IMG/VR virus record: IMGVR_UViG_3300045988_010479
DNA length: 6,008 bases
Direction: 5' to 3' (one strand)
Source of the DNA: a virus
The position numbers and the translations under genes were made by a program. The notes beneath the pieces were generated by a model. That model was not told the origin of the DNA. It was given only the letters and a program-made list of their open reading frames with translations, and did not search any database. Below are positions 1,567 through 6,008 of this stretch, one piece after another. Within the stretch, counting starts at the first letter, position 1; each line of letters opens with the position of its first letter.

Positions 1567-3270
1567 TTACAGTTTGTACAAGCCTGGCACACTGTACAAC
1601 GGCATCCGTCTTGTGGTATTGTTTGCTACTCGGATTGCTCCGAAAAATTGTGGTTCATCTTGCACGATGAGCGTTCGTGCAATTTCTTCCTTTCCTTCCG
1701 ACATCCACTCTTGCGACAGCGTTGGTACGTTTGGATAGTTGTCTGCATAGTGCCAGAAGTCCAGTGTGCCTTCTGCATTGCTTCTCATTTTGCCAGATAC
1801 CCGGTTAGGCTTCATTCTGTAGTCGCTCCAGGCCTCCTGGTAGCCGAAGACCTCCTCATCGCTTGCTTCGCCGGTTAACATGATTTCTTTCTTTTTGACA
1901 GGTTGTTCTCCCAGGTTTGCAAACTGCGGCACGTAGTAGTCAAGTCTGTCTGTTCTGCTCCAGAAACGTTCTAGGCCTTGCTGGTAACTGTGATTGTGCC
2001 GTACACAACAAACACCGATTACAAAACCGTGCTCTTCGAACGATTTGGTAAAGCTGCTTTCGTTGATTGGCGTTACTGACATTGCGCCGGTTTCACCGAT
2101 AGGTGTATCTGCGTTGCTCTGCTGTCCGCTTGTCTGCACGATTTGGTTCATGTTGACGTGATATCTGCCGCCGCCAAGATATTCCGGTACCTGTACTGTT
2201 TTGTCAGAGATAACCACGTTCCACAGTGCTTGTACCTGTTCACGGTAACGGCTGCCACCTCGTGCCAGTGCTTCGTAGTACTGCTGTACTGCTACGGCTT
2301 TTCTCAGGTCGTTTATGGTTGTTGCGGCTATTGATTCGAGGTCTGCATACATCCATCCCCCTGTGCCTGTTTCGGTGCTTGATTTTTCTGTTCCGGTGAA
2401 TTGCATTGCTTTTTTTTCTCCGGGTGCTCCGGTGGAATTTACGTACACTAGAGATCCGGCTGTGTTGACTCCGTGTGCACCTACTACCATTTCTACCGGT
2501 CCGTCGAAATTTTGGTAATTTCCGTCTGGGCTTCCCAATCTGATAGGTGCGTTTCCTGTCATTGGCATCGTCACTTCCGGCCCACGTTGCGGATATGGGA
2601 GACAGCTTGTGAAGTAGTCGTGGAACTTGTTTACCGGTAAACAAAAGCCTCCTTTGTATGCGTTTTCCAATCTGATTTCAATTGTTGCATCTTTTTCGTT
2701 TGGTTTGCTAGTTAGCCCTGTATCGTATTCCACATCTTGGCTGTTCGTTATGATTGTTGCTGCGTTTTCTACGTTTTCGTCTCTGAAATACTCATTCCAG
2801 ATTTTTACATATCCTCTGATTGGTAGTGCGTTGATTTTGAATGTTTTTTTTATTTTTGTTGGCACTCCCATGTAGTCAAGGATAGTTCCTTCTTCTGGCT
2901 TTGGATTTCCTCCTGCTTTTACGGTTACTGTGATTTGTGGTACTTTGTATTCTTTTTTTGGCATCCAAGGTGTATCTTCTACTTCTCCCATGAACTGTTT
3001 GAAGTCATCCCATAGGATTCTATTTGGACAATAGAAGTAGTATAAGTCAATGAATGCATCATCCATCACCGGATATTTCGGTGTGGTCATTCTGATAATT
3101 GCTGAGGTATCTACGTTGAAGGTGTCGCCCGGTAATACTTCGTCCACGTAAAACGGAATCAGTTTGCCGGAATCAAATGTTGTGAGAATAATCTGGTCAC
3201 GGTTGAATCGTGTTCGACTTGCTCTCATTTCTGGAATTTGATTGAAGTGCCGTTCATTGTTTCGATTCAC
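1567..3270 (-). CDS. VP1: Major capsid protein VP1 (567 aa)
   Basis: ORF track. N-terminus ERHFNQIPEMRASRTRFNRDQIILTTFDSGKLIPFYVDEVLPGDTF matches the conserved gokushovirus VP1 N-terminal region (F..IP...R..FDRS..TTFDAG.LIP...DEVLPGDTF). Start is GTG at 3270-3268, preceded by AAAGGAGGAGGAAAA (strong SD), and overlaps the VP3 TGA stop (GTGA). Stop TAA at 1569-1567. Confidence 0.95.
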   Translation of the reverse strand: MNRNNERHFNQIPEMRASRTRFNRDQIILTTFDSGKLIPFYVDEVLPGDTFNVDTSAIIRMTTPKYPVMDDAFIDLYYFYCPNRILWDDFKQFMGEVEDTPWMPKKEYKVPQITVTVKAGGNPKPEEGTILDYMGVPTKIKKTFKINALPIRGYVKIWNEYFRDENVENAATIITNSQDVEYDTGLTSKPNEKDATIEIRLENAYKGGFCLPVNKFHDYFTSCLPYPQRGPEVTMPMTGNAPIRLGSPDGNYQNFDGPVEMVVGAHGVNTAGSLVYVNSTGAPGEKKAMQFTGTEKSSTETGTGGWMYADLESIAATTINDLRKAVAVQQYYEALARGGSRYREQVQALWNVVISDKTVQVPEYLGGGRYHVNMNQIVQTSGQQSNADTPIGETGAMSVTPINESSFTKSFEEHGFVIGVCCVRHNHSYQQGLERFWSRTDRLDYYVPQFANLGEQPVKKKEIMLTGEASDEEVFGYQEAWSDYRMKPNRVSGKMRSNAEGTLDFWHYADNYPNVPTLSQEWMSEGKEEIARTLIVQDEPQFFGAIRVANNTTRRMPLYSVPGLYKL

Positions 3271-4804: not shown

Positions 4805-4975
4805 TTAAAAATCAAATGTTTGGTCTATTCTGTAGAGCGTTACTTTTATTACGTTTGCTTCTGCTCTACATTTTTTCGCTTTTTCTTTTGCGTCTCTGGT
4901 TGTTTCTATCCACATCTTTTGTTCTTTTGTACCGTTTTCGAAATATACTCTTACCAAAAATTTGTACTGTCTCAT
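4805..4975 (-). CDS. Hypothetical protein, 56 aa from ATG 4975 (MRQYKFLVRVYFENGTKEQKMWIETTRDAKEKAKKCRAEANVIKVTLYRIDQTFDF). The track ORF is extended to GTG 5035 (76 aa).
   Basis: ATG 4975-4973 with GAAGGGAAGGT 7 nt upstream. The 5' extension to 5035 would cover a consensus extended -10 promoter, so the shorter form is preferred. First gene after the large non-coding region. Stop TAA 4807-4805. Confidence 0.45.
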   Translation of the reverse strand: MRQYKFLVRVYFENGTKEQKMWIETTRDAKEKAKKCRAEANVIKVTLYRIDQTFDF

Positions 4976-5006
4976 GGTTCTTACCTTCCCTTCTTTTTCT
5001 GATTCT

Positions 5007-5023
5007 ATTATACCATATGTCAA
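5007..5023 (-). promoter_or_regulatory. Candidate sigma-70-type extended -10 promoter driving the accessory operon (minus strand: TTGACA TATGG TATAAT, i.e. TGGTATAAT)
   Basis: Minus-strand TATAAT at 5012-5007 preceded by TGG (TGnTATAAT extended -10 consensus). A perfect TTGACA hexamer at 5023-5018 is only 5 bp away, too close to act as -35 for this -10. Predicted TSS ~5000, giving a ~25-nt leader with an SD before ATG 4975. Confidence 0.45.
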
Positions 5024-5059
5024 TAGGCTTTTCACTGATTTTCCTGTTTTGTAATAAAA

Positions 5060-5080
5060 TTGTAACCTTCTCTTGTAACC
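5060..5080. repeat. Direct repeat TTGTAACC x2 (5060-5067, 5073-5080) plus a related TTGTAAT (5049-5055), 35-75 bp upstream of the candidate promoter
   Basis: Read directly from the sequence: tttTGTAATaaaaTTGTAACCttctcTTGTAACCcgg. Confidence 0.5.
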
Positions 5081-5104
5081 CGGTTTTGCTCCTTTGTTTT
5101 GAAT

Positions 5105-5118
5105 GGCGCTTTAGCGCC
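5105..5118. repeat. Near-palindrome GGCGCTTTAGCGCC. Its core CGCTTTAGCG (5107-5116) is repeated directly at 5322-5331, bracketing the TTCAACA arrays.
   Basis: Exact 10-bp match at the two positions. First copy forms a 5-6-bp GC stem. Confidence 0.5.
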
Positions 5119-5180
5119 TTGCCGTGTGTAGCGCATGCGGAACTCGGCTAAATCCATTCCTTTTTAGCGCTGTGCGCGTT

Positions 5181-5300
5181 TTCAACACTTTCAACACTTT
5201 CAACACTTTCAACAGGTTTTCAACAAAATGTTGCACAATGATTTTCGTTATTTTGACGAACTTTCAACATTTCAACAAGTTTTCAACAAAACTTTCAACA
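5181..5300. repeat. Iteron-like arrays of TTCAACA (minus strand TGTTGAA), nine same-orientation copies. Array A: 5181, 5190, 5199, 5208 (exact 9-bp period, CTTTCAACA x4) plus 5219. Array B: 5263, 5271, 5282, 5294. Degenerate TTGCACA at 5231 and TTCAAC at 5348.
   Basis: Read directly from the sequence. All copies are non-coding and sit between the accessory-operon promoter and the rep 3' end. Confidence 0.85.
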
Positions 5301-5400
5301 TTGTTTTTTGCTTTTTATTTACGCTTTAGCGTTAAATTTTAGCACTTTTCAACTTTTCCACTACCTCTACTACTACTCCTACAACAAGTTAATATTATAT

Positions 5401-5444
5401 TGCGCGTGCGCGCGTGCGCGCTATCGCGCGTGCGTGCACGTGCG
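5401..5444. repeat. Alternating purine-pyrimidine (CG/TG) tract, Z-DNA-prone: TGCGCGTGCGCGCGTGCGCGC-TAT-CGCGCGTGCGTGCACGTGCG
   Basis: A 21-nt and a 20-nt perfectly alternating Pu/Py run separated by TAT. About 75% GC, embedded in AT-rich non-coding DNA (TTAATATTATAT immediately upstream). Internal GCGCGTGCGCGC repeats. Confidence 0.8.
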
Positions 5445-5458
5445 AATTAGATTACCTG

Positions 5459-5476
5459 ATAGACTGAATAGACTGA
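5459..5476. repeat. Tandem 9-bp repeat ATAGACTGA x2 (context cTGATAGACTGAATAGACTGATACATAG)
   Basis: Exact tandem copies at 5459-5467 and 5468-5476. Confidence 0.7.
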
Positions 5477-5500
5477 TACATAGAGCTTTTAAACGACAAT

Positions 5501-5532
5501 AGCCCAGTACCTTACTTGATAGGTACTGGGCT
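5501..5532. promoter_or_regulatory. Perfect 12-bp-stem hairpin (AGCCCAGTACCT / AGGTACTGGGCT) with 8-nt loop TACTTGAT, 20-50 nt 3' of the rep stop on the coding strand. Candidate rep transcription terminator and/or replication-origin stem-loop.
   Basis: Exact inverted repeat read from the sequence. A second small hairpin GACACTgttaaAGTGTC (5541-5557) covers the rep stop codon. Confidence 0.6.
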
Positions 5533-5551
5533 AGGTGACACTATGACACTG

Positions 5552-6008
5552 TTAAAGTGTCCCCCTCTTCTTCATCTGCTTCTTTATCACTCTCTCTTTC
5601 GTTTTACACTGTTCTGCAAAGTTTGCATTTTCATACTTAAGTCGGTTCTCTGCGATTGCTGCTGCTTGTCTGTTCTGCTTAATTCTCCACAATCTTTGTG
5701 GGTTTTCAGCTTCCATCATTTTTTCATAATAGCGCGGAATTTGTGCGTGTTTGCCGTTTGTGCATTGGATGTAGCCTTGTCTCCAGATTTCTTCTTTGTG
5801 CTTTTTGTAATAGTTATCTCCTAGGCCTGGCTTAAGGCTCATACGTGCAAAAGGTTTTTGCTGCCCTAGTTCATAGTATGCGTTTGCTTTCTGGCCGTCA
5901 ATTTCGTACATTTTTTTTGTAACGTATCCTGCAACATATCTATATGTCTCTGGCACTGCTTGTGCTATCTGTATTTGACCCATGTCCCATAGTTCTGATA
6001 GCCATTTA
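5552..6008 (-). CDS. VP4: Replication initiation protein Rep (VP4), C-terminal part (143 aa from the internal Met plus upstream codons), truncated by the window end. Upstream part is 100-662 on the circle.
   Basis: ORF track 5552..5983 (-). Contains RYVAGYVTKKMYEID (RCR motif III with two catalytic Tyr, near-identical to phiX174 gpA YVAKYVNKK) at 5912-5938. Stop TAA at 5552-5554. The frame stays open from 5984 to 6008, consistent with continuation at 75-662. Confidence 0.9.
   Translation of the reverse strand, partial: KWLSELWDMGQIQIAQAVPETYRYVAGYVTKKMYEIDGQKANAYYELGQQKPFARMSLKPGLGDNYYKKHKEEIWRQGYIQCTNGKHAQIPRYYEKMMEAENPQRLWRIKQNRQAAAIAENRLKYENANFAEQCKTKERVIKKQMKKRGTL
5910..6008. repeat. Exact 99-bp direct repeat of bases 1-99 (terminal redundancy from wrapping a circular 5909-bp genome, or the start of a second tandem unit)
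   Basis: Bases 1-99 and 5910-6008 are identical base for base. The repeat runs to the window end, so its true extent is unknown. Confidence 0.95.

Follow-up and report, generated by a model that had tools for sequence, protein, structure and literature searches.

The stretch of DNA analyzed here (hereafter the window; 6,008 nt; IMG/VR record IMGVR_UViG_3300045988_010479) is the genome of a human-gut gokushovirus (Microviridae), with 86% identity to Gokushovirus WZ-2015a (KT264791) and 84% identity to Human gut gokushovirus (KX513868). All of its genes, comprising VP2, VP1, VP3, a VP5-like open reading frame (ORF), an M15 peptidase, and VP4, are carried on the minus strand, and the window is therefore written antisense to its genes; the strand as written is termed the + strand below, and its complement the coding strand. 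An exact terminal direct repeat of 99 nt (1-99 and 5910-6008), the usual sign of a circular contig, indicates a circle of 5909 nt; a naive reading over the repeat junction duplicates 33 VP4 residues. The subject of this analysis is a GC-rich tract at positions 5401-5444, located in a non-coding region of ∼500 nt that follows the replication gene VP4 and extends from the VP4 stop codon (5552-5554, minus strand) to a sigma-70-like promoter of the next operon (5035-5007).

The tract consists of TGCGCGTGCGCGCGTGCGCGC (5401-5421), TAT (5422-5424), and CGCGCGTGCGTGCACGTGCG (5425-5444), and is bordered by very AT-rich sequence, ttaatattatat upstream and (g)aattagattac downstream. Its G+C content is 77% (34/44), compared with local values of 0.29-0.55 elsewhere in the window. 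The description given in the first-pass annotation, of an alternating purine-pyrimidine GC tract in AT-rich non-coding DNA, holds in each of these respects: the two alternating runs (21 and 20 nt) are the only ones of at least 20 nt in the window, where the next longest is 14 nt, and the composition is that of a Z-DNA former (mainly CG with some CA/TG, at least ∼6 dinucleotides). The same annotation judged such a tract very unlikely to arise by chance, and in first-order Markov simulations of the window the longest alternating run averaged 12.9 nt, with a maximum of 17, such that none of the 300 simulations reached 20 nt.

For comparison, 80 IMG/VR relatives were gathered by the C-terminal part of VP4, and 76 close genomes (including the window and two GenBank genomes) had enough sequence downstream of VP4 to be informative; relatives and other contigs are referred to by L numbers. 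The element occurs at the same place in 73 of these 76, as 57 distinct sequence variants, and in five of six more distant gut gokushoviruses with diverged VP4 tails, the exception being KT264798. Among the close genomes, L028 has no element, L076 has mostly lost one arm, and L006 has unrelated DNA at the site. Nothing resembling the element was found in the classical gokushoviruses Chp2, phiMH2K, and SpV4. Conservation in relatives had been proposed as a check on the tract, with an assembly or amplification artefact as the concern. That concern is not borne out: at least 12 metagenome datasets contribute independent contigs with homologous but sequence-varied tracts, and GenBank genomes from France and China have such tracts as well. 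The element is real and specific to this clade. The number of arms also varies (three in L078, in addition to the loss in L076), and contigs end within the tract in L008, L044, and L071, or start within it in L091. These breaks and the variation in arm number are consistent with a slippage-prone structure that hinders both sequencing and assembly.

The tract is an imperfect inverted repeat, with two 20-nt arms around a 3-4-nt spacer, and has the properties of hairpin- or cruciform-forming repeats, compensatory change among them. A stable GC hairpin in single-stranded DNA (ssDNA) had been anticipated from the sequence, and folding of both strands confirmed it: on the + strand, 20 consecutive pairs (15 Watson-Crick and 5 G.T) enclose a 4-nt loop (-23.1 kcal/mol), whereas on the coding strand the same helix is interrupted by A.C mismatches (-17.1 kcal/mol). 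On the + strand, positions 5383-5545 fold into exactly two hairpins, the GC hairpin and a putative nick hairpin described below (-36.8 kcal/mol, z = -6.2).

Pairing was examined in an alignment of 56 distinct variants, with 24 pairs scored for covariation and 20 core pairs for mismatch types. Changes on both sides occur at 13 of the 24 pairs; L081, for instance, has T.A in place of C.G, and L025 and L031 have CAT/ATG in place of CGC/GCG. The covariation score of 0.125 exceeds that of shuffled alignments (0.075 ± 0.006; 0/500 reach it) and that of an alternation-preserving control in which partners were slid by 2 nt (0.067-0.076). One arm is nearly invariant, while the center is always a non-alternating loop of 3-4 nt that varies in sequence. 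The core-pair cells (n = 1120) comprise 926 Watson-Crick pairs, 183 coding-strand A.C mismatches (equivalent to G.T on the + strand), only 5 coding-strand G.T, and 6 others, so that standard pairs make up 99.0% of cells on the + strand vs. 83% on the coding strand; for all but one of the 56 variants (55/56) the + strand gives the stabler fold, by a mean of 5.5 kcal/mol. In the five distant palindromes, which differ in sequence, all 18 mismatches are likewise coding-strand A.C (18:0; binomial p = 2.7e-4 against the transition bias of 38:22 in the adjacent module). The A.C states are common (52/56, 42/56, and 21/56) and fixed in whole sub-clades, whereas G.T states are found in at most 2/56 (Mann-Whitney p = 0.007), and coding-strand C-to-T changes (10 distinct alleles) are nearly always accompanied by a compensating change in the partner. 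Transitions outnumber transversions in the arms (27:8), in contrast to the adjacent module (103:129; Fisher p = 4e-4). This pattern is the signature of selection on a G.T-tolerating helix in single-stranded nucleic acid of + strand polarity. Neither Z-DNA nor a cruciform nor the binding site of a dimeric protein, all of them properties of the duplex, can yield such a one-sided distribution of mismatches.

The second hairpin begins 55 nt downstream of the GC hairpin on the + strand (Table 1). Its stems covary among relatives (CCCAGTACC, CCAAGTACC, GGGCCTAATC, GGCCTATTCC, and others), and its loop is invariant in 135 loci, reading CTATCAAG in coding-strand sense and CTTGATAG on the + strand. The viral-strand origin of phiX174 is annotated in its record at CAACTTG|ATATTAATAAC, and the origin consensus of the pC194/pUB110 plasmid family ends in CTTGATA (PMC5031790). 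By analogy with phiX174, cleavage is predicted between G5518 and A5519, within the putative nick-site sequence TACTTGATAG. In a subfamily-wide sample, 11 of 12 other gokushoviruses also have an intergenic hairpin with an 8-16-bp stem whose loop contains CTTG(A/T)T (CTTGAC in one); in every case the motif is on the coding strand. By analogy with the CTTG^ATA nick site of phiX174 and pC194, this hairpin is a candidate VP4 origin for the whole subfamily. Among the gokushoviruses sampled, the motif lies on the antisense strand only in the clade of the window. Read on the coding strand, where it is followed by TTGTCGTTT, the same hairpin also looks like a VP4 terminator.

Between the two hairpins of the window lies a short series of repeats (Table 1), in which the first unit amounts to another, exact copy of CTTGATAG in 15 of 82 relatives; these are possible Rep-binding repeats. 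In relatives, 1-4 extra GC-rich hairpin cassettes are also found between the nick hairpin and the GC palindrome, in differing combinations (e.g., L033, L036, L004, L016, L048, and L074). Examples are AAAGGGGTTGACTTAAAAGTCAACCCCTT, GCGCCCCAATCTTGGGGC, TATCCCCCCTAGAAGGGGGGATG, and GGGGGTAGGCCTATCGGCCTACCCCC, and the ensemble resembles a modular hairpin array.

Base composition offers a further view of strand polarity. At four-fold degenerate sites of the window VP1 (1567-3270, minus strand), the coding strand has A at 0.53 and T at 0.10, and the window together with 13 relatives (L001, L002, and others) spans A 0.39-0.61 and T 0.09-0.19. At the corresponding sites, T is abundant and A scarce on the coding strand in phiX174 (T 0.64, A 0.05) and in 8 of 11 other VP1-annotated gokushoviruses (T 0.51-0.78), the mirror image of the window. 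The T-rich synonymous sites typical of packaged microvirus strands thus lie on the + strand of the window, consistent with packaging of the non-coding strand. Together, three independent markers (the nick motif, the wobble tolerance in two hairpins, and the synonymous-site skew) suggest that the + strand is nicked, displaced, and packaged.

Table 1. Features of the intergenic region of the window, and related features in other genomes.
Feature	Position or genome	Strand	Remarks
5' arm of GC hairpin	5401-5420	+	TGCGCGTGCGCGCGTGCGCG; alternating purine-pyrimidine; pairs base for base with 5425-5444 (15 Watson-Crick + 5 G.T)
Loop of GC hairpin	5421-5424	+	CTAT (+ strand) / ATAG (coding strand); non-alternating center, 3-4 nt, sequence variable among relatives
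3' arm of GC hairpin	5425-5444	+	CGCGCGTGCGTGCACGTGCG; in coding-strand sense, the more variable arm
Repeats between GC and nick hairpins	5455-5476	+	CCTGATAG-ACTGAATAG-ACTGA; near-copy of nick motif, then two 9-nt direct repeats ATAGACTGA
Putative VP4 nick site (double-strand origin)	5500-5533	+	perfect 13-bp hairpin; loop TACTTGAT (5513-5520); invariant CTTGATAG (5515-5522)
AT-rich stretch, 18 nt	5383-5400	+	AACAAGTTAATATTATAT; abuts GC tract; expected position of the unwinding element of the oriC-like module
Two tandem DnaA-box-like 9-mers and trios	5346-5381	+	TTTTCAACT, TTTTCCACT; short C-rich gap; CTA-CTA-CTA-CTC-CTA trios (TAG on other strand); layout of the bacterial 'basal unwinding system'
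Nine DnaA-box variants, two arrays	5180-5300	+	TTTCAACA, as in Ruminococcus oriC
Short GC-alternating tract	5166-5179	+	AGCGCTGTGCGCGT (ACGCGCACAGCGC); far border of module; second breakpoint of module inversion in relatives
Inverted module, close genomes	L018, L028, L047, L053, L068, L074 (and L054)		
Inverted module, distant genomes	MG945867 (L182), KT264800 (L183)		
CTTG-loop hairpin, Chp2	AJ270057 2904-2941		
CTTG-loop hairpin, phiMH2K	AF306496 3296-3335		
CTTG-loop hairpin	MG945801 5027-5066		
CTTG-loop hairpin	KT264824 4632-4668		
CTTG-loop hairpin	KP087949 3865-3897		
CTTG-loop hairpin	PQ006757 2893-2934		
CTTG-loop hairpin	PP511820 3174-3207		
CTTG-loop hairpin	MK249195 2944-2978		
CTTG-loop hairpin	MH992209 4168-4203		

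On its other side, the GC tract adjoins a module that forms a copy of a bacterial (Ruminococcus-type) oriC. When one genome per species was scanned, the TTTCAACA repeat pattern of its box arrays turned up in many assemblies of Ruminococcus and Oscillospiraceae, and in the Ruminococcus contig CANQVA010000006 (L215, 4464-5809) these boxes occupy the spacer between dnaA and dnaN, the flanking genes being recognized by Pfam (Bac_DnaA, 2.8e-64; three DNA_pol3_beta domains). The end of this Ruminococcus spacer reads TTTTCCACAgTTTCAACA-cccc-CTACTACTACTACTA-tatttatttacg, which is the layout of the phage module; its counterpart on the phage + strand is TTTTCAACtTTTCCACtaCCTCTACTACTACTCCTACaacaagttaatattatat, after which the GC tract starts. 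The basal unwinding system of bacteria consists of two DnaA boxes, a short GC gap, DnaA-trios, for which 3'-GAT-5' is the consensus, and the unwound region (PMC8287927). Because the phage layout matches this system, the tract abuts what would be the AT-rich element of a DnaA-dependent unwinding module. At the level of sequence, the module suggests a Ruminococcus/Oscillospiraceae host and the use of DnaA by the phage.

The module (∼270 nt) is direct in 63 and inverted in 6 of 70 close relatives (∼9%), and inverted in two of the six distant genomes, while the orientation of the palindrome and the nick hairpin is constant whichever way the module points. Tracts of alternating GC lie at both inversion breakpoints, the long palindrome on one side and the 5166-5179 tract on the other. 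Inverted alleles form a sequence type of their own (87% alike mutually vs. 75-79% to direct alleles), and their greater mutual likeness looks like the outcome of an old inversion with exchange rather than of active flipping. A second non-coding region rich in DnaA boxes (∼1.6 kb) is present away from dnaA in two contigs of Ruminococcus metagenome-assembled genomes (MAGs; L219, 2033-3643, and L210), flanked by a DUF6512 gene, which adjoins a SpoU methylase gene, and by a VTC-domain gene. A 48-nt stretch of it is 96% identical to the phage box array, and the region could be a second part of the origin, a DnaA-titrating locus, or a phage remnant. With VP1 as the query, a search of 185,579 species genomes for a prophage or host gave no relative, and a search of a plasmid collection with positions 5160-5560 gave no match. 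The box module is also present in a complete-looking related gokushovirus (L235; CALBJK010000280, 5840 nt) with a VP1 49% identical to that of the window. The binning of this contig with a Prevotella MAG conflicts with its Ruminococcus-type boxes, and is probably a binning artefact.

Of the roles considered for the tract, we rank first, tentatively and on grounds of position and structure, that of a landmark hairpin in ssDNA of the window + strand for priming of the complementary strand. Under this model, VP4 would nick the + strand within the nick-hairpin loop, at CTTG^ATA, and the nicked strand, antisense to all genes, would then be displaced and packaged. The GC hairpin, directly 5' of the nick site, would be the last sequence made single-stranded in each rolling-circle round, and this exposed-last position is that of the single-strand origin (sso) of rolling-circle plasmids. 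The hairpin would persist as a duplex landmark on viral DNA coated with single-stranded DNA-binding protein (SSB), and the complementary strand would be started there by priming factors of the host, such as RNA polymerase, primase, or a primosome of the PriA type. The hairpin may act by itself or jointly with the further GC-rich hairpin cassettes found at this place in relatives. The first-pass annotation had listed a structural signal for the complementary-strand origin among its suggestions; a signal near the origin is indeed the best-supported reading, and the polarity, with pairing favored on the antisense + strand, goes beyond what it proposed. The purine-pyrimidine alternation is probably a consequence of a (CG)n ancestry and of the transitions-only tolerance of the hairpin, and not itself selected.

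The closest parallel is found in the sso elements of rolling-circle plasmids (ssoA, ssoT, ssoU, and ssoW), which are strand-specific, strongly folding imperfect palindromes in non-coding DNA, active only as ssDNA and in one orientation. They lie just upstream of the nick site, are exposed last, are dispensable for viability, and can be exchanged between replicons. The phage element shares with them a strand-specific imperfect palindrome upstream of the inferred nick site, as well as dispensability, and its position agrees, given that the structure favored on the + strand lies 55 nt 5' of the CTTGATAG hairpin. It differs in its length (44 nt vs. ∼130-200 nt), in its almost pure CG/TG alternation, and in having no RSB or CS-6 motif on the folding strand: the conserved RSB sequence of the ssoA type is absent, as is the CS-6 (TAGCGT-like) that this type has in the terminal loop of a long hairpin of the displaced strand, the + strand loops being CTAT, TTC, TTT, and similar, and TAGCG is present only on the opposite strand, in only some variants.

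A similar comparison can be drawn with the complementary-strand origins of phages. The PriA/n' hairpin of phiX174, the primase hairpins of G4, and the RNA-polymerase hairpins of M13/fd are, like the window element, intergenic hairpins of the packaged strand that survive SSB and serve in priming, a role that is putative here. They differ in that there is no sequence similarity, and in that folding of the window element takes place on the antisense strand. A Ruminococcus-like Firmicute is the probable host, and to our knowledge none of the phiX174-, G4-, or M13-type systems has been characterized in Firmicutes. The idea of hairpins that direct priming has also been put forward for conserved intergenic hairpins with compensatory changes in small microviruses (PMC9865509). 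Other gokushoviruses also have GC-rich hairpins with 4-nt loops near their CTTGAT-loop hairpin: in MH992209, GCGCCCCTATG-tact-CATAGGGGCGC is located 57 nt 5' of the CTTGAT hairpin, comparable to the window element in placement and stem strength, and perfect GC-rich intergenic hairpins occur in PQ006757 and MK249195. These hairpins differ in being non-alternating and perfect (no wobbles), and in lying on the coding strand together with the nick motif. The element thus resembles an sso or a phage minus-strand origin hairpin, yet it belongs to no described family, with no CS-6/RSB motif, U-tract, Rfam match, or dif architecture.

Several other candidates were tried and rejected. XerCD dif-type sites, as known from enterogokushoviruses, have two 11-bp arms and a 6-bp spacer (PMC7062461), in contrast to the 20-nt arms and 3-4-nt spacer found here, and by eye the element does not resemble the E. 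coli or Firmicute dif consensus. A nick site directly beside the palindrome was considered for AACTTGTTGTAG, which lies just 3' of it on the coding strand and has a 10-mer in common with the phiMH2K loop; this sequence inverts with the module, as part of its AT-rich element and trios, and is therefore not tied to the palindrome. A search for a phiX-like origin elsewhere (CAACTTGATAT with at most 2 mismatches) gave one match, which does not exceed the chance level. Coding potential was rejected as well, since the ORF that spans the tract (5308-5502, + strand) would be disrupted in any frame by the changes in loop length and the cassette insertions of relatives. Restriction-site avoidance or a decoy role finds no counterpart in the counts of GCGC outside the tract (13 vs. 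12.9 expected), which indicate no avoidance. No tRNA, tmRNA, or known RNA was found.

A number of observations weigh against a priming hairpin on a packaged + strand. No sequence motif that defines known sso elements or sites of primosome assembly was found in the element, the putative priming role is drawn from position and structure only, and the evidence for polarity is indirect. The element is dispensable in some lineages (L028 and KT264798 have no copy, most of it is deleted in L076, and other sequence replaces it in L006), and its absence from a few genomes that appear complete means that it cannot be strictly essential. The coding strand of phiMH2K is A-rich, yet its CTTG loop is on the coding strand, so that composition is supporting evidence and no sole proof of polarity. 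With regard to the mismatches, the aligned sequences are related and the cell counts overstate the number of independent events; when distinct combinations of position and type are counted instead (17:4 vs. 38:22), a crude test is by itself not significant (p = 0.18). Furthermore, the coding-strand hairpin is still stable (-17 to -21 kcal/mol), and the loops read GAA, GAAA, or GTAA on that strand. Loops of the GNA type are especially stable in DNA and would favor folding of the coding strand.

An alternative that we regard as unlikely is that the tract acts at the level of the duplex in the supercoiled replicative form, either by absorbing supercoils as Z-DNA or a cruciform, or as a GC 'clamp', delimiting the AT-rich unwinding element and keeping it insulated from the rolling-circle origin. 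Its CG/TG alternation over 21 + 20 nt is that of a textbook Z-former, comparable in composition and in its runs of 10 dinucleotides to the (CG)n/(TG)n tracts of supercoiled plasmids. By a rough energy estimate, each run would convert to Z-DNA in a 6-kb circle once superhelical density (sigma) reached roughly -0.045 or went beyond it, which falls in the range known for plasmids; the transition is unfavorable at -0.03, and only a high superhelical density would make Z-DNA feasible. Alternation-preserving transitions are enriched (27:8), the tract begins exactly where the 18-nt AT-rich element stops (5400/5401), and the inverted-module genomes again have a short GC-alternating tract after the AT-rich element. 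In these same genomes, however, the long palindrome adjoins the DnaA-box arrays and not the unwinding element, and a mismatched cruciform is costly, with an estimate that is unfavorable even at a sigma of -0.06. A constraint on the duplex would leave substitutions symmetric between strands, since G.T and A.C are one base-pair change viewed from opposite strands, yet the mismatches are one-sided (183:5 and 18:0), and Z-DNA neither needs nor predicts the dyad symmetry, central loop, compensatory change, and one-strand wobble tolerance that are observed. The left-handed conformation proposed in the first-pass annotation is physically possible, perhaps as a side property, while the non-alternating center, the compensatory changes, and the extreme strand asymmetry of the mismatches argue against it as the selected property.

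It is more doubtful still that the tract serves VP4 (Rep) as a recognition or termination element, in which a hairpin of the displaced strand before the nick site would help VP4 to locate the origin, or to restore it, when strands are transferred, a task that inverted repeats beside nic sites perform for relaxases and other HUH enzymes. The strand asymmetry is compatible with such action on the displaced strand, as are the fixed orientation and distance range relative to the CTTGATAG hairpin, regardless of module direction, and the nick-motif-like repeats between the two hairpins. Two A.C positions are nearly fixed (52/56 and 42/56), reminiscent of the imperfect hairpins that some HUH enzymes read. 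Against this, the spacing to the nick hairpin ranges from ∼3 to ∼145 nt owing to the inserted cassettes, the element is missing from some viable-looking genomes, and no such palindrome accompanies the nick hairpin in the other gokushoviruses examined.

We likewise give little credence to a functionless by-product, that is, a (CG)n microsatellite grown by slippage, kept palindromic by intrastrand template switching, and marking a hot spot of recombination at the edge of a mobile oriC-like cassette. Since (CG)n is self-complementary, palindromy would come free. In addition, L078 has a third arm copy and L076 lacks one, either orientation of the neighboring module is found, with both breakpoints in GC-alternating tracts, varied hairpin cassettes are shuffled around the palindrome, and contigs often break within it. 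Against this, G+C is maintained despite strong T pressure, in that ∼77% of the + strand pyrimidines in the arms are C vs. ∼26% expected from four-fold sites, and one arm hardly varies in 56 variants. The compensatory changes and the strand-specific mismatch filter indicate selection on pairing, and the element persists where the VP4 tail and the nick-hairpin stems have diverged.

Least probable of all is a role in RNA, whether as a stability element or terminator in the VP4 3' untranslated region (phiX174 hairpins serve as mRNA stabilizers) or as a G.U-containing hairpin in an antisense (+ strand) transcript, for although G.U is standard in RNA and an antisense RNA would account for the asymmetry as well as ssDNA does, sense RNA bears the A.C mismatches, no convincing + strand promoter lies upstream, where the sequence differs between direct- and inverted-module genomes while the palindrome is constant, no U-tract follows the GC hairpin on either strand (tails AATATAAT, coding, and AATTAGAT, +), a terminator scan of 4900-5700 returns only the 5500-5533 hairpin and the GC hairpin fails as an intrinsic terminator, and the sole match in Rfam 15 (mir-466, 18.8 bits vs. 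a gathering score of 85, E = 8.4) is a chance low-complexity one.

Returning to the priming hairpin, we also entertain, somewhat more tentatively, a broader scenario for the clade: that it packages the strand complementary to its mRNA, as the first negative-sense lineage of Microviridae, following an ancient flip of the origin loop, and that the GC hairpin is its complementary-strand origin, set between the VP4 nick hairpin and a captured host (Ruminococcus-type) unwinding system, which would place three kinds of origin within ∼400 nt. Searches on gokushovirus origins and on microviruses with DnaA returned nothing relevant in the searchable literature, and the subfamily-wide CTTGAT-loop hairpin, its inverted polarity in the clade of the window, and the oriC-like DnaA module in a microvirus are without match there.

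Gokushoviruses are among the most abundant phages of the human gut, almost none have been cultured, and our searches of the searchable literature turned up no account of either replication origin. The features reported here provide a testable map of replication control, comprising a candidate nick hairpin, a strand-specific GC hairpin in the position of an sso, and an oriC-like DnaA module that nominates a host. In addition, the one-sided wobble pattern is a purely computational indicator of the packaged strand in metagenomic ssDNA viruses, and its result for this clade is at odds with the assumption that the packaged strand of microviruses is the one carrying the genes. If true, this would change the orientation, annotation, and quantification of such genomes in strand-aware viromics.

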